NCBI RefSeq assembly: GCF_044324875.1
Contig: NZ_CP172186.1
Source of the DNA: Escherichia coli
GTDB lineage: Bacteria > Pseudomonadota > Gammaproteobacteria > Enterobacterales > Enterobacteriaceae
DNA length: 64,000 nt
Direction: 5' to 3' (one strand)
Positions 1,953 to 63,528 of the stretch are shown piece by piece. Within the stretch, counting starts at the first letter, position 1, and each line of letters opens with the position of its first letter. Position numbers and translations under genes: made by a program. The notes below the pieces were generated by a model. The model had not been told where the DNA came from. It saw only the letters and a list, made by a program, of their open reading frames with translations, and did no database searches.

Positions 1953-2699
1953 GTTTTTCCAGCTCTTACGGTGTATTACCTCCGCTTTGTAAAGGCCATT
2001 GATGCTCTCCGCCATCGCGTTGTCATACGAGTCACCAGTACTTCCTGTTGATGCCAGTAATCCGGCTTCCTTAAGCCGCTGTGTGTAGGCCAGCGATACA
2101 TACTGAGAACCTTTATCACTGTGATGGACTGTGCCGGACGGTCGACGGGCCCATAACGCCTGCTCCAGAGCATCCAGCACGAATGTCGTTTCCATAGACG
2201 ATGAGACCCGCCACCCCACGATGTATCCGGCAAACACATCAATGATGAACGCCACATAGACGACCCCCTGCCATGTGCTGACGTAAGTAAAATCAGCCAC
2301 CCACAACTGGTCAGGACGTTCTGCCACAAACTGACGGTTTACGCGGTCGCCTGCGGCAACGGCTTTCCGGCTGACGGTAGTGCGGACCTTTTTACCCCGG
2401 AGAACACCGGCAAGTCCCATAACCGCCATGAGGCGCGCCACTGTACATCTGGCTACCCTGATTCCTTCCCGTAACAACTGACGCCAGACTTTACGCACAC
2501 CGTATACCTGATGATTCCCATCGTATACGCGCAGTATCTCTTTCTTCAGCCAGTCATCGCGCTGCGCACGGGCACTGCGTTTATAAGGATGATGTCGCTG
2601 TTGCTGACAGTGGTAATACGTTGACGGGGCAATATGTAGTTCACTGCATACCGGTCCGACCCCGTACAGCTTACGCAGCTTATCCAGCAGTGGCATCAC
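1953..2699 (-). pseudogene. IS3-family transposase OrfB, C-terminally truncated
   Basis: About 95 percent identical to orfB at 15556-16401 up to ...EVIHRKSWKN, then reads into IS66 sequence (tracked ORF 1899-2699). Confidence 0.8.
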
Positions 2700-3022
2700 T
2701 TTTTCCAGAGGCGGTCGAACTCCGCCTTCGCAAAATAAGCGGAAGCCTGGCGAAGGATATCGTTACTGCGGCGCAGTTCACGATTTTCACGTTCCAGCTC
2801 TTTCAGACGCTGACGTTCAGCGGTGGTGAGCCCGCCATCACCGCCTCCGGTATCCCGCTCATGCTGGCGTACCCAGACACGCAGAGTCTCCGGTGTACAG
2901 CCAATCTTTGGGGCAATGGAACAAATTGCCGCCCACTGTGAGTCATATTCGCCCTGACTTTCCAGAACCATACGAATCGCCCTCTGACGGACTTCGGGGG
3001 AAAAACGAGTATTTTTAGTCAT
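2696..3022 (-). CDS. IS3-family transposase OrfA (HTH)
   Basis: 108 aa [15 protein letters not shown]..., near-identical to 15208-15534 and 58909-59235. Confidence 0.9.
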
Positions 3023-3076
3023 TCTGTTTACCTCTTTCTCAGGGAGTTTAGTCTCCAGGATTCCCGGGGCGGTTCA

Positions 3077-6539: not shown

Positions 6540-6956
6540 TTATCCTGCCCAGTCTTCCAGTACCAGTCCAGGCACCCGCTCAAACTCTCTCACATTATTC
6601 GTCACCAGTATTGCCCCGGTGGCGATGGCGTGCCCGGCGATCGCCGTGTCGTTCGGACCGATCGGCGTGCCGGCGAGGCGCAGCGCCACCTTAACCTCCG
6701 TGGTTGCATCCACCGCAGCGCGATCCCAGGGCAGGATGGCATCGAGACGGGCGCAGAACGCGTCAACCAGCTGCACGTGGCGTGGCGATGCCTTTGGACC
6801 GGTGGCGCCGAAGCGCATCTCGGAGTAGGTGATGGCCGAGACCACTATACGGTGACCGCGCAGCACCGCCTGCTCCAGATTCTTAAGCACTGCTTCAGGC
6901 TGCTCGCGCATGATGAACGAGCAGATGTTCGTGTCGAGCATATAGATCTTGTTCAC
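6540..6956 (-). CDS. vapC: VapC toxin (PIN-domain RNase), copy 1
   Basis: 138 aa MNKIYMLDTNICSFIM...; overlaps vapB by 4 nt. Confidence 0.9.
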   Translation of the reverse strand: MNKIYMLDTNICSFIMREQPEAVLKNLEQAVLRGHRIVVSAITYSEMRFGATGPKASPRHVQLVDAFCARLDAILPWDRAAVDATTEVKVALRLAGTPIGPNDTAIAGHAIATGAILVTNNVREFERVPGLVLEDWAG

Positions 6957-7183
6957 AGGTTAAATCGTCCTTCGTCGCAGACAACGTCCTCGCGTTCCGT
7001 CATAAAGCCCGGATCGGCCTTTTCTAGCTCCAGGAATGAGCTCCAGCTCGGGCGGAGGGGACGCAGAATGATTCTGTCCCCTTCCCGTACAATCTCCAGC
7101 TCACTCACCCCCTCAAAATCCAGATCGCGGGGCAGACGGATCGCGCGGTTATTGCCATTTTTGAAAATAGATACGGTTCTCAT
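6953..7183 (-). CDS. vapB: VapB antitoxin (AbrB/SpoVT-type), copy 1
   Basis: 76 aa MRTVSIFKNGNNRAIRLPRDLDFEG... Confidence 0.9.
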   Translation of the reverse strand: MRTVSIFKNGNNRAIRLPRDLDFEGVSELEIVREGDRIILRPLRPSWSSFLELEKADPGFMTEREDVVCDEGRFNL

Positions 7184-7222: not shown

Positions 7223-7301
7223 ATATGCAGATGTGATACATATGTATATGTTATAGATATGCAGATGTGTGAGATATGCGTATGCCTGTCATATGCAGAT
7301 G
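7223..7301. promoter_or_regulatory. Three direct ATATGCAGATG repeats at exact 34-bp spacing upstream of vapB copy 1
   Basis: Repeats start at 7223, 7257, 7291; an inverted copy (TATCTGCATG) follows at about 7324. Confidence 0.4.
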
Positions 7302-7708
7302 CCAAACATATGGATATGCATGGTATCTGCATGTTTCTCTCTTTTTTCACCGGGATCCGAAAAATATCAGTCACGGATCTTCCTCTCCCCCACACAACAC
7401 CACCTCCTGTAAGTACAACATGTAGTACTTCCTTCGGCTGCTCATGACACTATATGTTGTGTTATTTCCCTGACTTGTGATGCGCCACGCAGGGGCGGAA
7501 AACAGCGATATGATGATTTCCTCATCGTGTAGACTGGCCCCCTGAATCTCCAGACAACCAGTATCACTTATTTAAGTGATAGTCTTAATACTAGTTTTTA
7601 GACTAGTCATTGGAGAGCAGATGATTGATGTCTTAGGGTAAGCGTACAGCCTGAACCGTCTGGTCAGAATCTGACGAATTAGACAAAGTGGTGTCCACCA
7701 AATAAGTA

Positions 7709-8110
7709 GTGGGAACCAAAGTGTCAGATATGCAGAAAAATGTGACTCCCGGCAGGCGAAAAGGCTGCCCTAATTATCCTCCCGAATTTAAACAGCAGCT
7801 CGTTGCTGCCTCCTGTGAACCCGGGATATCCATCTCAAAACTTGCTCTTGAAAATGGCATTAACGCCAATCTGTTGTTCAAATGGCGACAACAATGGCGC
7901 GAGGGAAAGCTGCTATTACCTTCTTCAGAGAGCCCCCAGCTACTTCCTGTGACTCTCGATGCAGCTGCCGAACAGCCAGAATCGCTCGCAGAGGACCCGG
8001 AAACCCTCAGTATCAGCTGTGAGGTAACGTTCCGGCACGGGACGCTCCGCTTCAATGGCAATGTCAGCGAAAAGCTCCTGACTCTGCTGATACAGGAACT
8101 GAAGCGATGA
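7709..8110 (+). CDS. tnpA: IS66-family TnpA (orf1)
   Basis: 133 aa, HTH-containing. Confidence 0.9.
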   Translation: MGTKVSDMQKNVTPGRRKGCPNYPPEFKQQLVAASCEPGISISKLALENGINANLLFKWRQQWREGKLLLPSSESPQLLPVTLDAAAEQPESLAEDPETLSISCEVTFRHGTLRFNGNVSEKLLTLLIQELKR

Positions 8111-8454
8111 TCCCTTTACCTTCCGGGACCAAAATTTGGCTGGTTGCCGGTATCACCGATATGAGAAATGGCTTCAACGGCCTGGCTGCGAAAGTACAGA
8201 CGGCGCTGAAAGACGATCCCATGTCCGGCCATGTTTTCATTTTCCGGGGCCGCAGCGGCAGTCAGGTTAAACTGCTGTGGTCCACCGGTGACGGACTGTG
8301 CCTCCTGACCAAACGGCTGGAGCGTGGGCGCTTCGCCTGGCCGTCAGCCCGTGATGGCAAAGTGTTCCTTACACAGGCGCAGCTGGCGATGCTGCTGGAA
8401 GGTATCGACTGGCGACAGCCTAAGCGGCTGCTGACCTCCCTGACCATGCTGTAA
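8107..8454 (+). CDS. tnpB: IS66-family TnpB (orf2)
   Basis: 115 aa; overlaps tnpA stop. Confidence 0.9.
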
Positions 8455-8503
8455 ATCTCTTTATCCTGGTTGTCACAGAATAAGCCCGGTAAAATACGGG
8501 CTT

Positions 8504-10042
8504 ATGAACGACATCTCTTCTGACGACATCTTCCTGCTGAAACAGCGCCTGGCCGAACAGGAAGCGCTGATCCACGCCCTGCAGGAAAAGCTGAGCAACC
8601 GGGAGCGCGAAATAGACCATCTGCAGGCGCAGCTGGATAAACTCCGCCGGATGAACTTCGGCAGTCGTTCCGAAAAAGTCTCCCGCCGTATCGCACAAAT
8701 GGAAGCCGATCTGAACCAGCTTCAGAAAGAGAGCGATACGCTGACTGGTAGGGTGTATGACCCGGCAGTACAGCGTCCGTTGCGTCAGACCCGCATCCGT
8801 AAGCCGTTCCCTGAATCACTACCCCGTGACGAAAAGCGACTGTTGCCTGCGGCGCCGTGCTGCCCGAACTGCGGCGGTTCACTGAGCTATCTGGGCGAGG
8901 ATACCGCCGAACAGCTGGAGTTGATGCGTAGCGCCTTCCGGGTTATCCGGACGGTACGGGAAAAACATGCCTGTACTCAGTGCGATGCCATCGTGCAGGC
9001 ACCTGCACCTTCGCGGCCCATCGAGCGGGGTATCGCCGGACCGGGGCTGCTGGCCCGCGTGCTGACCTCGAAGTATGCAGAGCACACCCCGCTGTATCGC
9101 CAGTCAGAAATATACGGCCGGCAAGGTGTGGAGCTGAGCCGTTCACTGCTGTCGGGCTGGGTGGATGCATGCTGCCGGCTGCTGTCTCCGCTGGAAGAGG
9201 CGCTTCATGGCTATGTCATGACTGACGGCAAACTCCATGCCGATGATACCCCGGTCCAGGTACTGATGCCGGGTAATAAGAAGACGAAGACCGGGCGGTT
9301 GTGGGCGTATGTTCGTGATGACCGCAATGCCGGGTCAGCGTTGGCACCTGCAGTGTGGTTCGCTTACAGCCCGGACAGAAAAGGCATCCATCCGCAGACT
9401 CATCTTGCTTGCTTCAGCGGTGTGCTGCAAGCGGATGCGTACGCCGGGTTCAACGAGCTGTATCGCAATGGTGGGATAACGGAAGCTGCCTGCTGGGCTC
9501 ATGCCCGCCGAAAGATCCACGATGTGCACGTCCGCATCCCGTCAGCACTGACGGAAGAAGCCCTGGAGCAGATCGGTCAGTTGTACGCCATAGAGGCGGA
9601 TATAAGGGGAATGCCGGCAGAGCAGCGGCTTGCTGAACGTCAGCGAAAAACGAAACCGCTGTTGAAATCCCTGGAAAGCTGGTTGCGTGAAAAGATGAAG
9701 ACCCTGTCGCGACACTCAGAGTTGGCGAAGGCGTTCGCGTACGCACTTAACCAGTGGCCGGCACTGACGTACTATGCGAACGATGGCTGGGTGGAAATCG
9801 ACAACAACATCGCTGAAAATGCCCTGCGGGCGGTAAGTCTGGGTCGTAAAAACTTCCTGTTCTTCGGCTCTGGCCATGGTGGTGAGCGGGGAGCGCTACT
9901 GTACAGCCTGATAGGGACGTGCAAACTGAATGACGTGGATCCAGAAAGCTACCTTCGCCATGTGCTTGGCGTCATAGCAGACTGGCCGGTCAACCGGGTC
10001 AGCGAACTGCTTCCGTGGCGCATAGCACTGCCAGCTGAATAA
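8504..10042 (+). CDS. tnpC: IS66-family transposase TnpC
   Basis: 512 aa; N-terminal leucine zipper, CxxC...C zinc motif, DDE core. Confidence 0.95.
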
Positions 10043-10087
10043 CACATCCCCGTCAATACGGCCCTCGCTGTACGCTTACGTCTTAGG

Positions 10088-10436
10088 ACCGGAGAAACGC
10101 AGACGGCGTACCACACAGGAAAAGATCGCAATTGTTCAGCAGAGCTTTGAACCGGGGATGACGGTCTCCCTCGTTGCCCGGCAACATGGTGTAGCAGCCA
10201 GCCAGTTATTTCTCTGGCGTAAGCAATACCAGGAAGGAAGTCTTACTGCTGTCGCCGCCGGAGAACAGGTTGTTCCTGCCTCTGAACTTGCTGCCGCCAT
10301 GAAGCAGATTAAAGAACTCCAGCGCCTGCTCGGCAAGAAAACGATGGAAAATGAACTCCTCAAAGAAGCCGTTGAATATGGACGGGCAAAAAAGTGGATA
10401 GCGCACGCGCCCTTATTGCCCGGGGATGGGGAGTAA
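10088..10436 (+). pseudogene. insC: IS2 insC (OrfA), split by the IS66 insertion after codon 6
   Basis: ATGATTGATGTCTTAGGG at 7621-7638 encodes MIDVLG; remainder [18 protein letters not shown]... resumes at 10088. Confidence 0.85.
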
Positions 10437-11299
10437 GCTTAGTCAGCCGTTGTCTCCGGGTGTCGCGTGCGCAGTTGCACGTCATTCTCAGACGAACCGA
10501 TGACTGGATGGATGGCCGCCGCAGTCGTCACACTGATGATACGGATGTGCTTCTCCGTATACACCATGTTATCGGAGAGCTGCCAACGTATGGTTATCGT
10601 CGGGTATGGGCGCTGCTTCGCAGACAGGCAGAACTTGATGGTATGCCTGCGATCAATGCCAAACGTGTTTACCGGATCATGCGCCAGAATGCGCTGTTGC
10701 TTGAGCGAAAACCTGCTGTACCGCCATCGAAACGGGCACATACAGGCAGAGTGGCTGTGAAAGAAAGTAATCAGCGATGGTGCTCTGACGGGTTCGAGTT
10801 CCGCTGTGATAACGGAGAAAAACTGCGAGTCACGTTCGCGCTGGACTGCTGTGACCGTGAGGCACTGCACTGGGCGGTCACTACGGGCGGCTTCAACAGT
10901 GAAACAGTACAGGACGTCATGCTGGGAGCGGTGGAACGCCGCTTCGGCAACGAGCTTCCGGCGTCTCCAGTAGAGTGGCTGACGGATAATGGTTCATGCT
11001 ACCGGGCTAATGAAACACGGCAGTTTGCCCGGATGTTGGGGCTTGAACCGAAGAGCACGGCGGTGCGGAGTCCGGAGAGTAACGGCATAGCAGAGAGCTT
11101 CGTGAAAACGATAAAGCGTGACTACATCAGTGTCATGCCCAAACCAGACGGGTTAACGGCAGCAAAGAACCTTGCAGAGGCGTTCGAGCATTATAACGAA
11201 TGGCATCCGCATAGTGCACTGGGTTATCGCTCGCCACGGGAATATCTACGGCAGCAAGCCAGTAATGGGTTAAGTGATAACAGGTGTCTGGAAATATAG
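10394..11299 (+). CDS. insD: IS2 InsD (OrfB, DDE transposase)
   Basis: 301 aa [21 protein letters not shown]... Confidence 0.9.
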
Positions 11300-11563
11300 G
11301 GGCAAATCCAAAAAATACTTAGGAATAATTTATGTAAAACAGGTTGTCGTCTTCATGATTTAAACGCAGTACATATATATACTCTATAATAAATACAGGG
11401 AGTATCACGAGACGTCTGGATAAGAGGAATAACCAGAATAAATTGGTAAGGAATAAAGACACTTATTTCTATTGAGAAAAAACATTTATCCTGATGTGAT
11501 TAGTATCAATGAAATAATGTGCTTGTATGGTTGATAAAAATGCATCACTAAAGAAAAAACAGT

Positions 11564-14500
11564 ATGAATAAGAATATACGAATTTTACAGTTTCTGGTCA
11601 GTATACTTTATTCTGTGCAGTCTCATTTTTCTGGTGCGCAAACAATACAACTGAATGGTAATGGTATACCTGAAAGTATAACCAGGAGTATTACAGGTGT
11701 TGATGGAAACGCGGCGCTTAATATCAGCGTGCCGTATAAAACAAGTTATACTCAAAATATACTATCTGTTGAAAGCAGTATTAACATCAAAGGAGGAACA
11801 AGCAATACATCAATCGGTGGTGCAGGTGTCTACGGTGAAAACTTTACGCTAAATAATAATGGTAGTGTTTGGGGAGGAGATGGATATAATGGTGGAGTTG
11901 CTGTTAGTGGCAACAAAATATCTATAAACAATTACAGAAATGTATATGGGGGTAATGGTCTTGGTGGCTCAGGAAGTAGCGGAGGTGCAGGGTTAAGCGG
12001 GGATGATATTATAGTTGATAATTACAGAAGTATATACGGAGGTGATGATCTAGGTGGGACAGGTGGTTCCGGTGTAACCGGGAGCAATATTACAGTGCAT
12101 AATTCCGGAGGAATATGGGGTGGTAATGGCGTAAACGGTGGTGATGGTATTAATGGTAGTAATCTTTTCATTACTAACGACAACATGATATCTGGAGGAT
12201 ATGGAATAAAACAAGGGGGAGATGCTATTTCTGGAAATCAAATCACTTTGAATAATAACGGTATTGTTCAGGGGGGATATGGCCCCGACGGTAGTTGCTC
12301 TGTTTATGGAGAAGATATCCATATTAATAATCATGGTAATATTTCAGGCTCATATAATAGCCAAAAAGATGCTTATAACACATCAATAATTTTTTCTGCT
12401 GGGTATAATTCATTAGATATTTATTCAGATTCTGTGATTAATGGTGATATTAAACTAGCTAGTATACCTGTTAATGGTACAAATGAATTAATTATTAAAA
12501 ACATCAATAACGCAACAGCAATTAATGGTGGGCTAATGATTGGGAATGGCTCGTCTGTTTATCTGTCAAGCAAGAACATCATTTTTAACGGAAATATAAG
12601 TATTGATGAAGACGCATCTATGAACCTGTCTGCAGGAAATGCTAATGTTCACGCAAATACTATTACATTAAAAAGTGATTCATGGCTTAATATAGACACA
12701 TCAATTAAGAACTGGACTCAGGACTATTACACATTATTGTCGTCAGACACAGGTATCTCGATCGCTGATAATAGTCACATTGTACAATACAATGTATTAC
12801 TGACAGAAGGTGCTGAAAGTTATGTTTATACGTCTTTAAATGACGACGATAACAAACTGATATCCATGCTGAGATGGAATAATACAAAAGGGATGGGATA
12901 TGGAACCTTTAATATAGAAAAAGATGCCACTCTGAACATAGGAGTTTCTCTTTCCGATAATCTTTCACCTTTATTATATGATGGCTGGGACGGCAAAAGT
13001 CTGACAAAATCAGGTAATGGTACTCTTATACTTTCTGCAACAAACAACTATACAGGAAATACAGAGGTTAAATCTGGCGTATTAATTCTTGCTGCACCTG
13101 ATGCTCTTGGTCGGACTGAGTATTTATATTTATCCCGTGGCGCAGAACTGGATATGAATGGGTATCCTCAGACAATAAGCAAACTACTGACGGCTGCAGG
13201 CTCTGTGCTGAACATTCATGGCGGAAGCCTGATACTGAATAATGGAGGAGAATCTGCAGGTACTATTGCAGGGGATGGTTCTCTGAACATAAATGGGGGA
13301 ATGCTTGATATAACGGGTAATAATCGTAATTTTTCCGGTGTTTTTACCGTGAATAAGGGGGCTCAGTTGGCTGTATCCACGGCTGATAATCTGGGGACAG
13401 CCTTTGTTGATAACTATGGCACATTAACTCTGAACAGTACATCAGCATGGCAGCTTACCAACAATATCAGTGGTTATGGTAATGTTCGCAAGACGGGAGC
13501 AGGTGCACTGAACATTAGCGATAACGCAAAATGGACCGGGATGACAGATATTATTCAGGGGACATTGATTCTGGGTAACGCAGATTCACCGGTGATGCTC
13601 GGCAGTAACCAGGTCATTGTTGAAGAGCAGGGCAAACTCTCCGGGTTTGGGGGCGTTGCAGGAAATCTGAGCAATAGTGGTATAGTCGATCTCACTACAT
13701 ATATGCCGGGTAATATACTGACTGTCGGAGGGAATTACACTGGCAGAAATGGACTTATTCTCCTCCAGACAGAAACAGGTGGTGACAATTCGAAAACAGA
13801 TCGTCTGGTGATTAAAGGTAATGCCAGTGGCCGTACCCGTGTCGCTGTTACTCAGGCCGGTGGTACTGGTGCAGAGACACTTAATGGGATTGAAGTGATT
13901 CACGTCAGTGGCAATGCTGATAATGCTGAATTCATTCAGACGGAACGTATTACAGCCGGAGCTTATGATTACATACTGAAACGTGGTCAGGGGATTAACA
14001 GCACTAACTGGTATCTGATTAGCAGAAAAGACATTCCTGTACCACAACCTGAAGCTGTACCGGAAAACCATGATAATAATTTGCGTCCTGAGGCAGGTAG
14101 CTATGTTGCCAGTATTGCTGCTGCAAATAATCTGTTTGTAACGAATCTGTATGAACGACAGGGACAGGAGTTGTATATCAGCCACATGACAGGAGAAGAA
14201 AATGAAGCAGGTATCTGGATGTATAATAAAGGAAAACATAATCGCTGGCGTGACAACAGTAGTCAGCTGAGAACCCGGGGGAATAGCTACGTTGTGTTAA
14301 TAGGGGGAGATATAGCTCAGTGGAGCCTGAATGGTACCGATCGCTGGCATACAGGTATGATGGCTGGCTATGGTCATAATCATAACAGTACGAATGCCCT
14401 GAGCACCGGATACCATTCGGAAGGAAGAATGAATGGATACACTGCGGGTCTTTATGCAACATGGTATGCCAATGATGAAACACACAATGGTTCTTATCTT

Positions 14501-15061
14501 GATAGCTGGCTGCAATACAGCTGGTTTGATAATCATATAAATGGAGAACGGCTGCCTGCTGAGTCATGGAAGTCAAAAGGGTTTACGGTATCTCTGGAAG
14601 CAGGATATTCATGGAAGGCTGGAGAGTTTACCGACAATTACAAGGGAAGTCATGAATGGTATGTTCAGCCGCAGCTTCAGGTTGTCCGGATGAATGTAAA
14701 ATCAGACAGACATCGTGAAAGTAACGGAACCAGTATTGAAAATACCGGTAACGGAAATATTCTCACTCGCCTGGGAGCGAGAACATGGTTTGTCAGTAAA
14801 AACGGTAAGAATTCACGGTATGCAGTTCCTCTCAGGCCATTTGTAGAAGTAAACTGGCTGCACAATAGTCGTGTTTTCGGCACCAGTATGAATGGTGTAA
14901 GTATTTACCAGGATGGGGCGCATAATATCGGAGAAATAAATGGTGGTGTTGTGGGAGTGATAACTCCAGAAGTGGTATTGCGGGCTGATGCAGGCATTCA
15001 ACTTGGAGAGCATGGATACCGCAATGCATCTGCTATGTTCGGCGTGGAATATCGTTTCTGA
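11564..15061 (+). CDS. Autotransporter (type Va) adhesin-like protein, AIDA-I/Ag43 type
   Basis: 1165 aa; N-terminal signal peptide; Gly-rich repetitive passenger (GGxGxxGG repeats); C-terminal beta-barrel ending ...FGVEYRF; AT-rich. Confidence 0.8.
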   Translation: MNKNIRILQFLVSILYSVQSHFSGAQTIQLNGNGIPESITRSITGVDGNAALNISVPYKTSYTQNILSVESSINIKGGTSNTSIGGAGVYGENFTLNNNGSVWGGDGYNGGVAVSGNKISINNYRNVYGGNGLGGSGSSGGAGLSGDDIIVDNYRSIYGGDDLGGTGGSGVTGSNITVHNSGGIWGGNGVNGGDGINGSNLFITNDNMISGGYGIKQGGDAISGNQITLNNNGIVQGGYGPDGSCSVYGEDIHINNHGNISGSYNSQKDAYNTSIIFSAGYNSLDIYSDSVINGDIKLASIPVNGTNELIIKNINNATAINGGLMIGNGSSVYLSSKNIIFNGNISIDEDASMNLSAGNANVHANTITLKSDSWLNIDTSIKNWTQDYYTLLSSDTGISIADNSHIVQYNVLLTEGAESYVYTSLNDDDNKLISMLRWNNTKGMGYGTFNIEKDATLNIGVSLSDNLSPLLYDGWDGKSLTKSGNGTLILSATNNYTGNTEVKSGVLILAAPDALGRTEYLYLSRGAELDMNGYPQTISKLLTAAGSVLNIHGGSLILNNGGESAGTIAGDGSLNINGGMLDITGNNRNFSGVFTVNKGAQLAVSTADNLGTAFVDNYGTLTLNSTSAWQLTNNISGYGNVRKTGAGALNISDNAKWTGMTDIIQGTLILGNADSPVMLGSNQVIVEEQGKLSGFGGVAGNLSNSGIVDLTTYMPGNILTVGGNYTGRNGLILLQTETGGDNSKTDRLVIKGNASGRTRVAVTQAGGTGAETLNGIEVIHVSGNADNAEFIQTERITAGAYDYILKRGQGINSTNWYLISRKDIPVPQPEAVPENHDNNLRPEAGSYVASIAAANNLFVTNLYERQGQELYISHMTGEENEAGIWMYNKGKHNRWRDNSSQLRTRGNSYVVLIGGDIAQWSLNGTDRWHTGMMAGYGHNHNSTNALSTGYHSEGRMNGYTAGLYATWYANDETHNGSYLDSWLQYSWFDNHINGERLPAESWKSKGFTVSLEAGYSWKAGEFTDNYKGSHEWYVQPQLQVVRMNVKSDRHRESNGTSIENTGNGNILTRLGARTWFVSKNGKNSRYAVPLRPFVEVNWLHNSRVFGTSMNGVSIYQDGAHNIGEINGGVVGVITPEVVLRADAGIQLGEHGYRNASAMFGVEYRF

Positions 15062-15207
15062 TGACTCTTTACATTATGAACATTCTTCGCAATATATTGT
15101 TTATAAGGCATGGTTAGCTGGGGGAAGCGGAAAATATGAAGACAGTAATGATTTGAACCGCCCCGGAAATCCTGGAGACTAAACTTCCTGAGAAAGATGT
15201 AAACAGG

Positions 15208-15534
15208 ATGACTAAAAATACTCGTTTTTCCCCCGAAGTCCGTCAACGGGCAGTTCGTATGGTTCTGGAAAGCCAGGGCGAATATGACTCACAATGGGCG
15301 GCAATTTGTTCCATTGCTCCAAAGATTGGCTGTACGCCAGAGACCCTGCGTGTCTGGGTTCGCCAGCATGAGCGGGATACCGGGGGCGGTGATGGTGGGC
15401 TCACCACCGCTGAACGTCAGCGTCTGAAAGAGCTGGAACGCGAAAATCGTGAACTGCGCCGCAGTAACGATATCCTTCGCCAGGCTTCCGCTTATTTTGC
15501 GAAGGCGGAGTTCGACCGCCTCTGGAAAAAATAA
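15208..15534 (+). CDS. IS3-family transposase OrfA
   Basis: 108 aa [26 protein letters not shown]... Confidence 0.9.
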
Positions 15535-15555
15535 TGCCACTGCTGGATAAGCTGC

Positions 15556-16401
15556 GTGAGCTGCAGTGAGCTGCATATTGCCCCGTCAACGTATTACCAC
15601 TGTCAGCAACAGCAGCATCATCCTGATAAACGCAGCGCCCGTGCGCAGCGTGATGACTGGCTGAAGAAAGAGATACAGCGCGTATACGATGAAAATCACC
15701 AGGTGTACGGTGTGCGTAAAGTCTGGCGTCAGTTGTTACGGGAAGGTATCAGAGTGGCCAGATGCACTGTGACACGTCTTATGGCGGTTATGGGTTTTGC
15801 CGATGTTCTCCGGGGTAAAAAGGTCCGCATTACCGTCAGCCGGAAAGCCGTTGCCGCAGGCGACCGCGTAAACCGTCATTTCGTGGCAGAACGTCCTGAC
15901 CAGCTGTGGGTGGCTGATTTTACTTACGTCAGCACATGGCAGGGCTTTGTTTATGTGGCGTTCATCATTGATGTGTTTGCCGGATACATCGTGGGATGGC
16001 GGGTCTCCTCGTCCATGGAAACGACATTCGTGCTGGATGCACTGGAGCAGGCGTTGTGGGCCCGTCGTCCATCTGGCACCATCCATCACAGCGATAAAGG
16101 CTCTCAGTATGTATCGCTGGCCTACACGCAGCGGCTTAAGGAAGTCGGATTACTGGCATCAACAGGGAGCACAGGCGACTCGTATGACAACGCGATGGCG
16201 GAGAGCATCAATGGTCTTTACAAGGCGGAGGTAATACACCGTAAGAGCTGGAAAAACCGGACAGAAGTGGAGCTGGCTACACTCACGTGGGTGGACTGGT
16301 ATAACAATCGACGATTGCTGGAAAGGCTGGGCCATACTCCCCCGGCAGAAGCAGAAAAAGCTTATTATGCTTCCATCGGAAACAATGATCTGGCAGCCTG
16401 A
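15556..16401 (+). CDS. IS3-family transposase OrfB (DDE; made as OrfAB fusion by -1 frameshift)
   Basis: 281 aa; tracked start is an alternative codon downstream of the frameshift window. Confidence 0.85.
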   Translation: MSCSELHIAPSTYYHCQQQQHHPDKRSARAQRDDWLKKEIQRVYDENHQVYGVRKVWRQLLREGIRVARCTVTRLMAVMGFADVLRGKKVRITVSRKAVAAGDRVNRHFVAERPDQLWVADFTYVSTWQGFVYVAFIIDVFAGYIVGWRVSSSMETTFVLDALEQALWARRPSGTIHHSDKGSQYVSLAYTQRLKEVGLLASTGSTGDSYDNAMAESINGLYKAEVIHRKSWKNRTEVELATLTWVDWYNNRRLLERLGHTPPAEAEKAYYASIGNNDLAA

Positions 16402-16493
16402 GTTCACAGACAAAACATTCTCCAGGAAACCCGGGGCGGTTCAATATGGATACCAGCTGTTCACTTCCAGAGCGGGCTGTTACCCGCTCTGCG

Positions 16494-38920: not shown

Positions 38921-41581
38921 GTGCGCCGTTGAAGCGCGGTGTTTTATGGAGTGTTGCCTGAAAAGCAACATGGCTTAGTGGTATAGCCATTGCATACTGT
39001 GGTTAGCCTTGCTTGGTAACAGGCTCGGAGATCCTGAAAAGGAGAGGTGAACATAGCATCCACAGAAAAGGGTGGTGAATATGGAAATCGTTATAAGTAT
39101 CACCATTCAATGCAAGATGTATATGGATAAACTGGGTTTGTTGAAGTCGAGATCTATGTGGGAAACAGGAAACCAATAACGCAGAACGATTGAAGCGTTA
39201 TTCCCGTACTAGCACAAGAAATCCGTCCGACGTTGATTGTGACCACTCTAACGGGCCAGCTATTGATGAAATAGTTAAACGATCGAAAGACATCCTAAGT
39301 ACATCGCATCTCCACACCGTGAAACTACGGGACTACCTAAACTGGATTTATACCCAGCATGGTAGCGGAGTCTCCATAGTACTCAAGGTCGGCCTGTAAT
39401 GGGTTCCGGCAGTCCGCATTATACGGAAGCAGCAAAGGTATAAATCAACCGGAAGGAAGATGAAAGCCTCACAGTGCTGCGGGGAAGGGAGACAGTTGTT
39501 AGATACATCAATCTCTAAGAGGAGGGTTAGCCAATGCTGCCTGATGAACTTGAGAAAAGATTAGATGGAATTGAGGATGCTTCAAAAAAAGGGTATCCAG
39601 TACGTAATCTATACAAAATTGCGTGTGAGCCCGGACTGTGGCTGCAAGCCTACGTGAATATACGGGCCAATGCAGGTGCACTGACTCAAGGTGTATCAAC
39701 AGATACCATTGATGGCTTTTCTATCGAAAGAGCAGAGAAGCTGGCAAAAACATTGCGGAGTAGAGAATACGTAGCGAAACCTGTACGCAGAGTTCAGATC
39801 CCAAAAAAGGACGGAAAAACCAGACCGCTGGGGATTCCAGGTGGAGACGATAAACTGGCGCAAGAAGTAGCAAGAATTATTCTGGAAAGGGTTTATGAAC
39901 CAGTATTCTCTGAACACTCTCATGGATTCAGACCAAAACGTTCGTGTGAAACTGCGCTCAGATCTATTCGTCCAGTCTGGAACGGAGTTAAATGGATCGT
40001 GGATGTTGATATCAAAGGTTTCTTTGACAATATCCCCCACAAACTATTGCTGAATACACTGGCAGAGAAAATTAAGGATAAGAATTTCCTGAAATTAATC
40101 GAACAGTGGCTGAAGGCAGGATATGTGGACAATTGGAAATACCATCGCTCATATTCTGGCACGCCACAAGGTGGGATAATTTCTCCCTTACTGGCAAATA
40201 TATACCTCGACAAACTGGACCGTTTTGTAGAACAGAATTTAATTCCTGCATATACAAGCGGTACAAAACGAAGAGCGAATCCAGATATGAACAGGCTGGC
40301 CCATAAGATTCATAAACTACGAAAGAAAGTAGACGGTATGGCAACTGATTCTGAATCAGAAAAAGAAGCCATAAAGAAAGAAATTGAACGACTGCTTGAA
40401 GAAAAACGTTCTATACCATCTCAGGTCATGAACGATCCAAACTTCAGGCGTATGTACTATGTTCGATATGCTGATGACTTCGTAATCGGTGTCATCGGCT
40501 CGAAGAAAGATGCTGAACATATATCAAGACAGGTCAGAAACTTTATTACTACTTCACTGGGATTGGAAGTTAATGAAGCAAAGACCAGGATCCGCCATAT
40601 CTCAGAAGGAGTTAATTTTTTAGGCTATGAAATCAGACAGGCAGATGCAAAGAAATTGCTGAAGCAGAAAATGCAAGGGCGGCACGCTCTCCGGAGATCC
40701 ACCACAGGAATTGTGCAGCTCTTCGTTCCTGACAATATAGCCGCTAAATTTTGTCACCAAAAGAAATATGGCTGTTATGAGAATGTGAAGGCTGTACATC
40801 GTTCAAGTCTACAAAATCTCAGTGAAGCTGAAATTGTTCTGACTTTCAACGCGGAAATGCGCGGATTGGCGAACTACTACAGTCTGGCGCTGGACATGAA
40901 ATATAAATTATCAAAATTATATTTCATATGGCAAATAAGCCTTTTTAAGACCCTGGCGAATAAACGACGTAGTTCAGTGAATAAAGTCGCCAAATCGCTA
41001 CGGCAAAATAATGGAGATCTGGCTATTACCGTTCAGGCCAAAAATGGATCCCGAAAGATTGAGGTTTTCAAACTCAAACATGTCAATCGCAACCGAACAA
41101 CGATTGTCGATACGGAACCGAGAACCGCACATATCACAACCCGCACAACAGAGATCATGCGTCGATTAGGGGCAAGGATCTGCGAGTATTGTGCGAAGAC
41201 TGGGCGCTGCGAAGTACATCATGTCAGAAAGCTAAAAGACCTGAAGAAAGGTCGTAAGGCCGGATATAAACCCAGCTTGTGGCAACTAATGATGATCGCA
41301 CGCCGCCGGAAAACGATGATTTTGTGCGCAAGTTGCCACGACAAGTTACATAGCGGAAAACTACCCGATTTGAGACAGGAAAAGGGAAGAATACTCCTGC
41401 AACCACCTGTCTCAAGCGGGGATTCTGCTAAATGAGTTTATCCCCAATAAGCTAGCAATGGAGAGCCGTATGCACTGAAAGGTGCACGTACGGTTCGGAG
41501 GGGGGGTAACGGTGATCTAACTCAAGATAAGCAGGACATATTCGCCATTTATCTTGAAAGACCACACGTACCCTACCCTAC
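38921..41581 (+). mobile_element. Group II intron (2661 bp) inserted in ssb
   Basis: 5' GTGCG, 3' ...AC; domain V-like hairpin GAGCCGTATGCACTGAAAGGTGCACGTACGGTTC at about 41462; encodes RT/maturase/HNH protein; flanking exons splice in frame. Confidence 0.85.
39534..41435 (+). CDS. Group II intron-encoded protein (reverse transcriptase - maturase - HNH endonuclease)
   Basis: 633 aa; RT motifs incl. YADDFVIGV; C-terminal HNH CEYC...HHV...CASCHDKLH. Confidence 0.9.
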   Translation: MLPDELEKRLDGIEDASKKGYPVRNLYKIACEPGLWLQAYVNIRANAGALTQGVSTDTIDGFSIERAEKLAKTLRSREYVAKPVRRVQIPKKDGKTRPLGIPGGDDKLAQEVARIILERVYEPVFSEHSHGFRPKRSCETALRSIRPVWNGVKWIVDVDIKGFFDNIPHKLLLNTLAEKIKDKNFLKLIEQWLKAGYVDNWKYHRSYSGTPQGGIISPLLANIYLDKLDRFVEQNLIPAYTSGTKRRANPDMNRLAHKIHKLRKKVDGMATDSESEKEAIKKEIERLLEEKRSIPSQVMNDPNFRRMYYVRYADDFVIGVIGSKKDAEHISRQVRNFITTSLGLEVNEAKTRIRHISEGVNFLGYEIRQADAKKLLKQKMQGRHALRRSTTGIVQLFVPDNIAAKFCHQKKYGCYENVKAVHRSSLQNLSEAEIVLTFNAEMRGLANYYSLALDMKYKLSKLYFIWQISLFKTLANKRRSSVNKVAKSLRQNNGDLAITVQAKNGSRKIEVFKLKHVNRNRTTIVDTEPRTAHITTRTTEIMRRLGARICEYCAKTGRCEVHHVRKLKDLKKGRKAGYKPSLWQLMMIARRRKTMILCASCHDKLHSGKLPDLRQEKGRILLQPPVSSGDSAK

Positions 41582-58852: not shown

Positions 58853-58908
58853 TTTGAACCGCCCCGGAAATCCTGGAGACTAAACTTCCTGAGAAAGATG
58901 TAAACAGG

Positions 58909-59235
58909 ATGACTAAAAATACTCGTTTTTCCCCCGAAGTCCGTCAACGGGCAGTTCGTATGGTTCTGGAAAGCCAGGGCGAATATGACTCACAATGGGC
59001 GGCAATTTGTTCCATTGCTCCAAAGATTGGCTGTACGCCAGAGACCCTGCGTGTCTGGGTTCGCCAGCATGAGCGGGATACCGGGGGCGGTGATGGTGGG
59101 CTCACCACCGCTGAACGTCAGCGTCTGAAAGAGCTGGAACGCGAAAATCGTGAACTGCGCCGCAGTAACGATATCCTTCGCCAGGCTTCCGCTTATTTTG
59201 CGAAGGCGGAGTTCGACCGCCTCTGGAAAAAATAA
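58909..59235 (+). CDS. IS3-family transposase OrfA
   Basis: Identical to 15208-15534 product. Confidence 0.9.
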
Positions 59236-59256
59236 TGCCACTGCTGGATAAGCTGC

Positions 59257-60102
59257 GTGAGCTGCAGTGAGCTGCATATTGCCCCGTCAACGTATTACCA
59301 CTGTCAGCAACAGCAGCATCATCCTGATAAACGCAGCGCCCGTGCGCAGCGTGATGACTGGCTGAAGAAAGAGATACAGCGCGTATACGATGAAAATCAC
59401 CAGGTGTACGGTGTGCGTAAAGTCTGGCGTCAGTTGTTACGGGAAGGTATCAGAGTGGCCAGATGCACTGTGACACGTCTTATGGCGGTTATGGGTTTTG
59501 CCGGTGTTCTCCGGGGTAAAAAGGTCCGCATTACCGTCAGCCGGAAAGCCGTTGCCGCAGGCGACCGCGTAAACCGTCATTTCGTGGCAGAACGTCCTGA
59601 CCAGCTGTGGGTGGCTGATTTTACTTACGTCAGCACATGGCAGGGCTTTGTTTATGTGGCGTTCATCATTGATGTGTTTGCCGGATACATCGTGGGATGG
59701 CGGGTCTCCTCGTCCATGGAAACGACATTCGTGCTGGATGCACTGGAGCAGGCGTTGTGGGCCCGTCGTCCGTCTGGCACCATCCATCACAGCGATAAAG
59801 GCTCTCAGTATGTATCGCTGGCCTACACGCAGCGGCTTAAGGAAGTCGGATTACTGGCATCAACAGGGAGCACAGGCGACTCGTATGACAACGCGATGGC
59901 GGAGAGCATCAATGGTCTTTACAAGGCGGAGGTAATACACCGTAAGAGCTGGAAAAACCGGACAGAAGTGGAGCTGGCTACACTCACGTGGGTGGACTGG
60001 TATAACAATCGACGATTGCTGGAAAGGCTGGGCCATACTCCCCCGGCAGAAGCAGAAAAAGCTTATTATGCTTCCATCGGAAACAATGATCTGGCAGCCT
60101 GA
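59257..60102 (+). CDS. IS3-family transposase OrfB
   Basis: 281 aa. Confidence 0.85.
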   Translation: MSCSELHIAPSTYYHCQQQQHHPDKRSARAQRDDWLKKEIQRVYDENHQVYGVRKVWRQLLREGIRVARCTVTRLMAVMGFAGVLRGKKVRITVSRKAVAAGDRVNRHFVAERPDQLWVADFTYVSTWQGFVYVAFIIDVFAGYIVGWRVSSSMETTFVLDALEQALWARRPSGTIHHSDKGSQYVSLAYTQRLKEVGLLASTGSTGDSYDNAMAESINGLYKAEVIHRKSWKNRTEVELATLTWVDWYNNRRLLERLGHTPPAEAEKAYYASIGNNDLAA

Positions 60103-60141
60103 GTTCACAGACAAAACATTCTCCAGGAAACCCGGGGCGGT

Positions 60142-60603
60142 TCAGTTTTGCCATTCTACAACCTGCTCCATCACGGCATCGGTAACCTTTGATATCAGTG
60201 CCGGTGAAACATCTGCGTCATACAGTTCTTTGAACGCAGCGGCTATCTCACGGGTGGTCATCCCTTTGGCATACAACGAGAGGATCTGGTTATCCATCCC
60301 GGTAATACGGGTCTGATTTTTCTTTACCAGTTGTGGTTCGAAGGTACCGTCACGATCGCGCGGAGTACGCAGTTCCAGTGGACCGTCGCCTGTGATAACG
60401 GTCTTTGTGGAATAACCGTTGCGGGAGTTAGCTCCTGGTCTGGACTGATTTTTCTCATACCCAAGATGGTGTGTCATCTCTGCATTGAGAGCGGCTTCAA
60501 CGCTGAGCTTTTTCAGCAGCCGATCAAACTGACTGAGGTCTTCAGGGGTTTTGAGGTTTTTGGCCAGTTCGTTAGCCAGAGCCTGTAACTGTTTTTCGTC
60601 CAT
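60142..60603 (-). pseudogene. IS256-family transposase, N-terminal fragment
   Basis: MDEKQLQALANELAKNLKTPEDL...RNGYSTKTV...PRDRDGTFEPQLV...SLYAKGMTTREI mutator-family N-terminus; ends at the IS629-like boundary. Confidence 0.7.
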
Positions 60604-60935: not shown

Positions 60936-61073
60936 AATTCCTCCTGGTGACTTATCCGTGTTATGTCTTTAATCTGTATCCCCTTCGTTGCTATGCCTCC
61001 GGGATATCAGGTATTACCTTTCGAAGAATTTTATAAAAAACCACCTGTGCAGAGGGAAAGAGTGGATTTGCCC

Positions 61074-61979
61074 CTATATTTCCAGACATCTGTTATCACT
61101 TAACCCATTACAGGCCCGCTGCCGCAGATATTCCCGTGGCGAGCGATAACCCAACGCACTATGCGGATGCCATTCGTTATAATGCTCGAACGCCTCTGCA
61201 AGGTTCTTTGCTGCCGTTAACCCGTCTGGTTTGGGCATGACACTGATGTAGTCACGCTTTATCGTTTTCACGAAGCTCTCTGCTATGCCGTTACTCTCCG
61301 GACTCCGCACCGCCGTGTTCTTCGGTTCAAGCCCCAACATCCGGGCAAACTGCCGTGTTTCATTAGCCCGGTAGCATGAACCATTATCCGTCAGCCACTC
61401 TACTGGAGACGCCGGAAGCTCGTTGCCGAAGCGGCGTTCCACCGCTCCCAGCATGACGTCCTGTACTGTTTCACTGTTGAAGCCGCCCGTAGTGACCGCC
61501 CAGTGCAGTGCCTCACGGTCACAGCAGTCCAGCGCGAACGTGACTCGCAGTTTTTCTCCGTTATCACAGCGGAACTCGAACCCGTCAGAGCACCATCGCT
61601 GATTACTTTCTTTCACAGCCACTCTGCCGGTATGTGCCCGTTTCGATGGCGGTACAGCGGTTTTTCGCTCAAGCAACAGCGCATTCTGGCGCATGATCCG
61701 GTAAATACGTTTGGCATTGATCGCAGGCATACCATCAAGTTCTGTTTGTCTGCGAAGCAGCGCCCATACCCGACGATAACCATATGTGGGTAGCTCTCCG
61801 ATAACATGGTGTATACGGCGAAGCACATCCGTATCATCCGTGTGACGGCTGCGGCGGCCGTCCTTCCAGTCATCGGCTCGTCTGAGAATGACGTGCAACT
61901 GCGCACGCGACACCCGGAGACAACGGCTGACGAAGCTTACTCCCCATCCCCGGGCAATAAGGGCGCGTGCGCTATCCAC
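61074..61979 (-). CDS. insD: IS2 InsD
   Basis: 301 aa. Confidence 0.9.
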
Positions 61980-62302
61980 TTTTTTGCTCGCCCATATTCA
62001 ACGGCTTCTTTAAGGAGTTCATTTTCCATCGTTTTTTTGCCGAGCAGACGCTGGAGTTCTTTAATCTGCTTCATGGCGGCAGCAAGTTCAGAGGCAGGAA
62101 CGATCTGTTCTCCGGCAGCCACAGCAGTAAGACTTCCCTCCTGGTATTGCTTACGCCAGAGAAATAGCTGGCTGGCTGCCACACCATGTTGCCGGGCAAC
62201 AAGGGAGACCGTCATTCCCGGTTCAAAGCTCTGCTGAACGATAGCGATCTTTTCCTGTGTAGTACGCCGTCTGCGTTTCTCCGGCCCTAAGACATCAATC
62301 AT
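61937..62302 (-). CDS. insC: IS2 InsC
   Basis: [24 protein letters not shown]...; ATG at 62302. Confidence 0.9.
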
Positions 62303-63528
62303 CTGTTCTCCAATGACTAGTCTAAAAACTAGTATTAAGACTATCACTTATTTAAGTGATATTGGTTGTCTGGAGATTCAGGGGGCCAGTCTAAAGAGTA
62401 AGGAACTTACTGATTCATTTAATATTATTATCCATCAATAACTGAGCATACAAAAAAATAACAAAACTCTGACACAGATACAACCAGCTCTCTCTATATC
62501 AGACTGACATTCTTCTCAAAAAGAGGCGTGTTCTGGAACACGGAACAGAAGCAATGAACATTGTAGACAGAAACACACTCTGTTTTTTACACGAGGATAT
62601 ATGTCGGGAAAATCAGGCAGAAGAAATTAAAGGACTTTGTGCATACAAAGGGAAAGCGCGTTTCCGGTGCACCATATTAGATATTATCCCTGCTACAAAC
62701 ACCAGAGACGCGCTCATAACTCTTCTAGCGTAAAATATCCTTTCAGGCAAGGAAAAGGTCGTGATACAGAATCACGACCTTAATTTTATCGAAAACACGG
62801 ATTTTAGTATGCACATGACTGTACTCCTCAGGAGTACAGGGAAATCATAATCAGTAACAAAAACACCCGGCAACAAAAATTTAACGCGTTTACGCTATTT
62901 TTGTGACAAATATTGCAAATATGGAATCACTGTATTTTTACTGCAACAAAATCTGGTTGATCCACAGGCGGATCCGGGGTAAAAAATTATCCGGAATGTT
63001 TCTGCGTGGTGTGGTAAAACCTCTAGCCGGATTGCCTTTGCAGCAACGCAGGAACATTCCATCCTTTATCAGTACTCCTGACGCTGTAAAGACCTGGCTG
63101 ATGCAGACAGGACTGCTGATATCGAATCAAAGCTTTCTCATTTTTTCGCGTACACAAAATAAAACAAATCAGGCAATTCCTTACACTCCCCCTCTAAAAT
63201 TGAGGGTTTTTTTTTACCATATAAATTACTTGCACAGCTTTTAAAAAAATTGCAAATCTTTACTGTAGTGTCGGGCTTCATGTAGCTCAACAGGGCATGG
63301 ACTAAAAAGAAGTAAACCCATCTTTTATCTCCCTGATATGGGGGTCTTTGTGGCATAAAGAATTCCTTGAATTATTATTTTGATCATATCAACATGAAAA
63401 GAATAATACTCTGACTTTTGATTTCCAGTGCCAGATATAAAATCAAATTCACTGTAAATATCACATAATGATATCTGGCTGCCCCCAGTCACTTCCTGTA
63501 TTCAGCCACACATATAAGCCCCCTGAAT

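Follow-up and report, generated by a model that had tools for sequence, protein, structure and literature searches.

On a poultry-type E. coli plasmid, a complete copy of the IS66-family element ISEc8 sits within an IS2 copy located a short distance upstream of the adhesin gene aatA. We observed this arrangement in a 64-kb stretch of DNA (the window), where the host IS2 starts with TAGACTGGCC at position 7530 and ends with GGGGCAAATCCA at 11310, both termini having been read directly. The features on which the following analysis draws are:

7530-11310, plus strand: IS2, split (read directly and computed)
7530-7637, plus strand: left arm of IS2, 108 bp, with the left inverted repeat, the Shine-Dalgarno sequence GGAG, insC codons 1-5 and two bases of codon 6
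7621-7641, plus strand: truncated insC stub, MIDVLG and a stop (ATG ATT GAT GTC TTA GGG TAA; read directly)
7630-7637, plus strand: left copy of the target-site duplication, GTCTTAGG (computed)
7638-10079, plus strand: ISEc8, complete, 2442 bp (identity to annotated copies and computed inverted repeats)
7730-8110, plus strand: ISEc8 tnpA, accessory protein of 126 aa; ATGA overlap between its stop and the start of tnpB
8107-8454, plus strand: ISEc8 tnpB, IS66 Orf2-like accessory protein of 115 aa (profile scores)
8504-10042, plus strand: ISEc8 tnpC, DDE transposase of 512 aa (profile scores)
10080-10087, plus strand: right copy of the target-site duplication, GTCTTAGG (computed)
10088-11310, plus strand: right arm of IS2, 1223 bp, with the remaining insC, the A6G site, insD and the right inverted repeat
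ending at 10436, plus strand: remainder of insC, in the right arm of IS2
10388-10394, plus strand: A6G frameshift site AAAAAAG (IS position 409), kept
10394-11299, plus strand: insD, 301 aa, intact (NCBIfam PRK09409)
61063-62393, minus strand: second, uninterrupted IS2, with the 5-bp duplication AAGAG at 61058-61062 and 62394-62398

An earlier note on this DNA had described a complete IS66-family element inside the IS2 gene insC, and we recovered every position it gave: the IS2 at 7530-11310, the sequence ATGATTGATGTCTTAGG to the left of the insert (7621-7637, read directly), the second copy of the 8-mer at 10080-10087 and the 2442-bp insert with its GTAAGCG ends. One detail requires amendment: insC is indeed split, but within codon 6, whose first two bases (GG) are parted from the third (A), and not after that codon. 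The right copy of GTCTTAGG is followed by ACCGGAGAAACGC. The duplicated 8-mer spans insC codons 4 to 6 and is found on the plus strand of the window only at 7630-7637 and 10080-10087, while its sole minus-strand occurrence (62286-62293) is the same site, unoccupied, in the second intact IS2.

The identity of the insert is seen at the level of both nucleotides and proteins. Over its entire length of 2442 bp it shows 100% identity to copies with the RefSeq annotation 'IS66-like element ISEc8 family transposase', and 3784 records match it at an identity of at least 99%. Its termini, GTAAGCGTACAGC (from 7638) and GCTGTACGCTTAC (to 10079), form a perfect inverted repeat (13/13 bases), with the same GTAAGCG...CGCTTAC ends being present in eight other ISEc8 copies. 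All three of its products score above the curated Pfam/NCBIfam family cut-offs: TnpA, whose gene appears in the RefSeq annotation as WP_001171554.1, matches the Pfam HTH_Tnp_1 (47.9 bits) and NCBIfam IS66 TnpA (97.7 bits; cut-off 74) profiles; TnpB matches Pfam TnpB_IS66 (131.4 bits) and NCBIfam IS66_TnpB (120 bits); and TnpC matches the DDE_Tnp_IS66 domain (PF03050) with 357 bits across profile positions 1-283 of 284, NF033517 transpos_IS66 with 457 bits (cut-off 180), and further the Pfam LZ_Tnp_IS66, zf-IS66 and DDE_Tnp_IS66_C domains. A literature match to the name ISEc8 turned out to be ISEc84.

IS66 elements generate an 8-bp target duplication (PMC6778807, citing Machida 1984). Exact 8-bp duplications likewise flank all eight of the other ISEc8 copies that we examined, at seven distinct sites, which bears out the reading of the duplicated GTCTTAGG as the signature of the element. 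That the repeat arose by chance, or that the structure is an artefact of assembly, is extremely improbable: two given positions would agree exactly over 8 bp with a chance of 4^-8 (about 1.5e-5), the ends of the insert agree to the base with those of ISEc8 copies of 100% identity, and the junction recurs in 25 independently assembled complete genomes. Given its intact genes and ends, and the many identical copies at different sites, the ISEc8 in the window, which is undamaged, is presumably still mobile.

Removal of 7638-10087 in silico, the check proposed with the earlier description, restores a contiguous IS2 of exactly 1331 bp with an intact insC. Against the reference copy IS2A of E. coli K-12 MG1655 (NC_000913.3, 381260-382590), the restored element aligns without gaps, with 29 differences in 1331 positions (97.8% identity) and identical ends. 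The restored InsC (121 aa) has no amino-acid differences from K-12 InsC and scores 276 bits against NCBIfam PRK09413; InsD has eight amino-acid differences from its K-12 counterpart, no internal stop, and a score of 713 bits against PRK09409 ('IS2 transposase TnpB'), with both proteins being above the IS2-specific cut-offs. The left arm differs from positions 1-108/109 of K-12 IS2A at five sites and matches uninterrupted copies of IS2 from other places with 100% identity. We also considered whether the A following the second GTCTTAGG, which is a G in K-12, might be a scar of the insertion; this was rejected, as uninterrupted IS2 copies carry the same A at 100% identity. The second IS2 of the window differs at 46 positions from the restored copy and at 51 from K-12 IS2A, and relative to these two the restored allele is a mosaic. 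This second copy is a possible source of IS2 transposase in trans and a possible partner in homologous recombination.

The split IS2 has no 5-bp duplication around it, its flanks being TCGTG on the left and AAAAA on the right. Such duplications are present at the second IS2 of the window (CTCTT), at K-12 IS2A (ATTAC) and at the IS2 copy of pMADE-3 (L007; GTATC). The missing duplication concerns the history of the split copy and not its identity as IS2.

The insertion has direct consequences for the coding capacity of IS2. The six-codon stub left at the native insC start takes its last G and its TAA stop from the ISEc8 terminus GTAA, and in the frame of the remnant no ATG, GTG or TTG is found from the in-frame TAG (10023) to Met30 (10158); residues 8-87 of InsC fall within the Pfam HTH_Tnp_1 domain. 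From the stub and the lack of a canonical start in the remnant before Met30, we infer that the split IS2 is very probably no longer autonomous, being unable to make its own transposase; the inactivation of IS2 proposed in the earlier note is thus well supported. It might be argued that the element is rewired rather than dead, with transcription reading out of tnpC allowing an InsC/InsCD remnant to be made from a non-canonical start codon near the right terminus of ISEc8. The frame of the remnant is open from 10026 into insC, and the RefSeq record of pAPEC-O1-ColBM has a 1232-nt 'IS3 family transposase' coding sequence starting from a CTG in the right end of ISEc8 (window position 10068). A promoter and terminator scan of 7400-11700, uninformative in that it returned fewer sites than shuffled sequence, showed no terminator-like site between tnpC and the IS2 remnant. 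However, the remnant frame offers none of the three canonical starts ahead of Met30, no Shine-Dalgarno-like sequence was seen by eye before the CTG at 10068, and the IS2 ends would lie 3.8 kb apart even if the remnant protein were produced. The RefSeq coding sequence is most simply explained as a homology-driven annotation artefact, and likely is one. Hence, we consider a functional remnant to be very unlikely and favor the loss of autonomous transposition.

The order of the two events can be read from the target. The duplicated 8-mer is itself IS2 sequence, and there are uninterrupted IS2 copies whose target region, with the A after the 8-mer, matches the restored allele at 100% identity; these observations place the insertion of ISEc8 after the arrival of IS2, as the earlier note had proposed. 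In agreement with this order, pEc673-2 carries an uninterrupted IS2 beside aatA at the same right junction, with IRR directly abutting AAAAATACTT. We take this copy as a natural pre-insertion allele, though with nine differences from the restored IS2 and a different left flank it is a relative of the ancestor rather than the ancestor itself. The IS2 of pMADE-3, with two differences from the restored copy, was also considered but does not represent the state before the ISEc8 insertion: it integrated separately, at the window-equivalent position 11503-11507, with its own GTATC duplication.

Among 5426 complete E. coli genomes, the exact IS2::ISEc8 junction was found in 25. All 25 records are plasmids, mostly from poultry and including pAPEC-O1-ColBM, and all have an identical right flank in which the composite lies upstream of the aatA autotransporter gene (IS2 is 253 bp upstream of aatA), followed by the eit iron-transport genes. 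The right junction between IS2 and the aatA side, irrespective of ISEc8, is common to roughly 53 plasmids. The other IS2/ISEc8 neighborhoods that we fetched lack the junction, with the exact search matching pAPEC-O1-ColBM only: the plasmid matches H24-H28 and chromosomal matches H42-H49, considered as instances of the composite elsewhere, have IS2 and ISEc8 only adjacent or differently arranged. The complete E. coli genomes yielded no IS2-free empty site, no record joining the left flank of the window to an intact IS2 and aatA, and none covering the full 1883-bp reconstructed query.

The left flanks are more variable. In pLH50-c-A, the flank to the left of the composite equals that of another, inverted IS2 in pCh101; matching of such patterns suggests that recombination between IS2 copies accounts for the left-flank differences among these plasmids. 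This raises the alternative that ISEc8 entered IS2 elsewhere, and that the 3781-bp composite subsequently arrived either by transposition, with the IS2 transposase provided in trans, or through homologous recombination into an IS2 already in place; the nesting would then not date events at the aatA locus. Several observations fit such a course: the composite retains both IS2 ends intact, the second IS2 of the window could provide the transposase, the split copy has unlike flanks in place of a 5-bp duplication, the IS2 copies on the junction plasmids do recombine, as the flank shared by pLH50-c-A and pCh101 indicates, and IS2 alleles are mosaics. Nevertheless, we judge it improbable, as the exact junction is seen only in the aatA context with one identical right flank in all 25 records, pEc673-2 has an intact IS2 at that very junction, and the composite did not turn up in any other setting, with H24-H28 and H42 merely having the two elements next to each other. 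An insertion of ISEc8 into an IS2 already resident at the aatA locus is hence our preferred reading.

Taken together, these observations suggest a history in which we have high confidence as a whole. An ancestral E. coli plasmid would have already had IS2 253 bp upstream of aatA when a copy of ISEc8, with tnpA, tnpB and the DDE transposase gene tnpC, transposed into it at the 8-bp target within insC codons 4 to 6, with staggered cleavage and repair giving rise to the duplicated 8-mer. As a result, 2.45 kb now lie between the rest of insC/insD and the left part of IS2, which holds its left end, the ribosome-binding site and the initial codons. The native insC start can yield only MIDVLG, terminated by the stop from GTAA, and the first ATG, GTG or TTG of the remnant is Met30, inside the N-terminal helix-turn-helix domain. 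The nested structure would then have been inherited, both vertically and by plasmid transfer, in one lineage of aatA plasmids, mostly from poultry. The resulting relative chronology runs from IS2 upstream of aatA through ISEc8 to the rearrangements of the left flank.

It is conceivable, if doubtful, that the composite is not inert, with its intact IS2 ends or the 108-bp left arm joining in plasmid rearrangement by means of transposase supplied in trans or IS2 recombination. If so, it would constitute a recurrent breakpoint at which sequence on the left side of the aatA/eit virulence module is reshuffled. The left flanks of ISEc8-bearing plasmids differ at the exact tip of IS2, a pattern compatible with a recurrent breakpoint.

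Nested insertion sequences are common on large enterobacterial plasmids. The present one is real but ordinary: public GenBank plasmid records have contained it since pAPEC-O1-ColBM, and a drawing of an interrupted IS2 dates from 2010, when Figure 2 of a paper on aatA comparing four strains used the label 'IS2^i: interrupted insertion sequence' (PMC2944236), which may denote pAPEC-O1-ColBM or another of those strains. The biological weight of the insertion is small. Its junction is nevertheless a clean lineage-specific marker that could be used to trace the mostly poultry-associated aatA/eit plasmids, and it flags the likely artefact in RefSeq of a transposase coding sequence with its start inside ISEc8.

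In comparison with known elements, the insert shares with the ISEc8 of E. coli RefSeq genomes its length, sequence, ends, tnpA-tnpB-tnpC order, ATGA overlap and 8-bp duplication, the sole difference being its target within the insC of IS2. The restored IS2 has in common with K-12 IS2A the 1331-bp length, the ends, InsC and the A6G frameshift site; however, K-12 IS2A is flanked by ATTAC on both sides, whereas the window copy lacks a 5-bp duplication and is split by ISEc8. At the level of the locus, pAPEC-O1-ColBM (NC_009837.1, ~77.9-81.7 kb) and the 24 other plasmids have the same junctions and right flank, with 99.8-99.9% identity to the window. To the left of IS2 they diverge: vapBC is present in the window and in pCh101, whereas DUF3800 genes are found in pAPEC-O1-ColBM, whose left flank agrees with that of the window over only ~156-162 bp, and an inverted cytochrome b562 segment in pLH50-c-A.

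Direct reading of positions 7300-11600, together with computation on the same sequence, bore out all the coordinates of the earlier note, which had placed an IS66-family element within IS2: the boundaries, the exact 8-bp repeat and the insert length are as follows.

Anatomy of the nested insertion
7530, + strand: left end of IS2, beginning TAGACTGGCC
7621, + strand: start ATG of insC; ATGATTGATGTCTTAGG terminates at 7637
7638-10079, + strand: inserted element of 2442 bp, with GTAAGCG at 7638 and CGCTTAC to 10079
7630-7637 and 10080-10087, + strand: target-site duplication GTCTTAGG, an exact 8-bp match
After the second GTCTTAGG, to 11310, + strand: IS2 right arm, restarting ACCGGAGAAACGC and ending GGGGCAAATCCA

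The terminal 13 bases of the insert form a perfect inverted repeat. A search of the whole 64-kb window found no further + strand copies of GTCTTAGG, and its sole - strand copy (62286-62293) is the equivalent unoccupied site of a second IS2; chance is not a serious explanation of the 8-bp repeat. In-silico deletion of 7638-10087 recovers a contiguous IS2 of exactly 1331 bp with an intact insC. In an ungapped alignment this restored IS2 and the K-12 MG1655 copy IS2A have identical ends and differ at 29 of 1331 positions (97.8% identity). The restored InsC equals K-12 InsC at 121/121 residues, InsD shows 8 substitutions and no internal stops, and the IS2-specific NCBIfam models recognize them with 276 and 713 bits, respectively; the AAAAAAG frameshift site is also preserved (window 10388-10394). 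The base following the 8-mer is A, as against G in K-12; other genomes carry uninterrupted IS2 copies that match the first 750 bp of the restored allele, this A included, at 100% identity. Therefore, excision recreates a naturally occurring allele and leaves no scar.

The insert is 100% identical over 2442 bp to many RefSeq-annotated copies of ISEc8, an IS66-like element with matches of at least 99% in 3784 records and with some match in 4229 of 5426 complete E. coli genomes. Its three genes match IS66-family models:

7730-8110: tnpA, 126 aa; HTH_Tnp_1; NCBIfam IS66 TnpA 97.7 bits (cut-off 74)
8107-8454: tnpB, 115 aa; TnpB_IS66 131 bits
8504-10042: tnpC, 512 aa; DDE_Tnp_IS66 357 bits, transpos_IS66 457 bits

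The stop codon of tnpA overlaps the start of tnpB as ATGA. The identity to ISEc8 and these gene matches substantiate the description of the insert as a complete IS66-family element. That the 8-bp duplication is a signature of this element was tested empirically on eight further copies of ISEc8, which occupy seven different sites: each has an exact 8-bp duplication and the same ends, in agreement with the duplication length stated for IS66 (PMC6778807). An ISEc8 copy on a segment of NZ_CP058874.1 (L016, 89-100) lies 12 bp inside a sequence starting GTAAGCGTAAAC. This sequence resembles the terminus of some other IS66-family element, and ISEc8 seems commonly to take part in nesting of one IS within another.

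At the left junction the sequence reads ATG ATT GAT GTC TTA GGG TAA, with the final base of codon 6 and the stop codon coming from the ISEc8 terminus GTAA, so that the native insC start can yield only MIDVLG. The insC gene is indeed split, but the break falls within codon 6 rather than after it, as had been claimed. To the right, the reading frame is open from 10026, with no in-frame ATG, GTG or TTG before Met30 (10158); InsC residues 8-87 make up the HTH_Tnp_1 domain. The insC remainder now lies 2.45 kb downstream of its native ribosome-binding site and of any left-end promoter. From the MIDVLG stub, the lack of a start before Met30 and the distant ribosome-binding site, we infer that autonomous transposition has likely been lost, and to that extent the proposed inactivation of IS2 is supported. 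A rival reading would take the RefSeq "IS3 family transposase" CDS WP_094284489.1 (8701-9932 on the pAPEC-O1-ColBM segment L001; window 10068-11299) as a real IS2 transposase. Its 5' end is a CTG codon inside the ISEc8 right end (window 10068), and the call is probably a homology-driven annotation artefact of the nested insertion.

The plasmid pEc673-2 carries an uninterrupted IS2 with an identical right junction (CAAATCCA joined to AAAAATACTTAGG) and only one GTCTTAGG, which supports the proposal that IS2 arrived first at this locus and ISEc8 second. This IS2 has 9 differences from the restored IS2, and the DNA on its left is not the same either; hence, pEc673-2 is a relative of the ancestor and not the ancestor itself.

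The window encodes one more IS2:

61063-62393, - strand: second IS2, intact, flanked by a 5-bp duplication (AAGAG, 61058-61062 and 62394-62398)

Its identity to the restored IS2 is 96.5%, and 38 of the 46 differences fall within the first 765 bp. This is the opposite of the pattern between the restored IS2 and K-12, which are identical at positions 110-776 and show 24 differences from 777 onward. The clustering indicates a mosaic make-up of the IS2 alleles. Together, the copies in the window form a 1231-bp inverted repeat (97%), which could allow inversion of the intervening ~50 kb.

Other mobile elements are also present. A further IS3-family element occurs as two direct copies (15152-16443 and 58853-60144, + strand) that bracket ~42 kb. 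They share 99.8% identity across at least 1292 bp, and both contain an Rfam ALIL frameshift pseudoknot; a third, inverted copy near the left end (1953-3076, - strand) is 92% identical. At 39534-41581 (+ strand) a 633-aa ORF is followed by a match to the Rfam RF00029 group II intron domain (67 bits, 41461-41581), and related plasmids have ltrA (group II intron reverse transcriptase/maturase) annotated in the equivalent region; together these suggest that a group II intron is probably present in the plasmid backbone.

The interrupted IS2 lacks a 5-bp duplication (TCGTG at 7525-7529 versus AAAAA at 11311-11315), whereas such duplications flank the second IS2 of the window (read as CTCTT), K-12 IS2A (ATTAC) and the IS2 of pMADE-3 (GTATC). 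The left flank, too, is not constant among plasmids sharing the nested structure. In the window and pCh101 it is vapBC:

6953-7183, - strand: vapB-like antitoxin ORF, 76 aa, directly left of IS2

In pCh101 the annotation gives the counterparts of this ORF and the genes upstream as a type II toxin-antitoxin pair, vapBC. The left flank of pAPEC-O1-ColBM is common with the window over only about 156-162 bp, and in pLH50-c-A the divergence starts right at the tip of IS2. The 3 kb left of the pLH50-c-A composite is an inverted match to DNA adjoining the left tip of another IS2 in pCh101, itself inverted and truncated (segments L006, 3317-4395, and L020, 1-3006). This match points to recombination between IS2 copies, and such exchange accounts for the variable flanks as well as for the absent duplication. 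To the left of the equivalent of window 11311, pMADE-3 has DNA (L007, 2488-2501) that carries the annotation of a truncated IS3-family transposase, with no detectable IS2 similarity; therefore, the module upstream of aatA abuts two different elements at one and the same left boundary. pMADE-3 has a separate IS2 insertion at the equivalent of 11503-11507, with the GTATC duplication, ~57 bp before the aatA start.

A 200-bp left-junction probe, with a full contiguous match required, was found in 25 of 5426 complete E. coli genomes, in every case on plasmids, mostly from chicken and including pAPEC-O1-ColBM. In the same 25 records the right junction runs on without a break into the autotransporter gene downstream. 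Where IS2 and ISEc8 seemed to co-occur in other records, they turned out to be unrelated neighbours of each other, and these cases were rejected as instances of the composite.

11564-15061, + strand: autotransporter ORF, 3498 bp, 1165 aa

This ORF agrees with aatA (APEC autotransporter adhesin A) both in where it lies on pAPEC-O1-ColBM and in length, given as 3,498 bp in the aatA paper (PMC2944236). It is followed by - strand MFS and iron ABC transporter genes, which the same paper assigns to the eit region (PMC2944236). The legend of the paper's Figure 2 has "IS2^i: interrupted insertion sequence" as a label in a comparison of four strains (PMC2944236).

Taken together, the original observation is confirmed and its interpretation supported with small refinements. 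The uses of IS2::ISEc8 are limited to its junction as a marker of the aatA/eit plasmid lineage and to flagging a probable RefSeq annotation artefact, the CDS starting inside ISEc8. The structure itself is a textbook case of nesting between two well-known elements, already known from public sequences and the literature.
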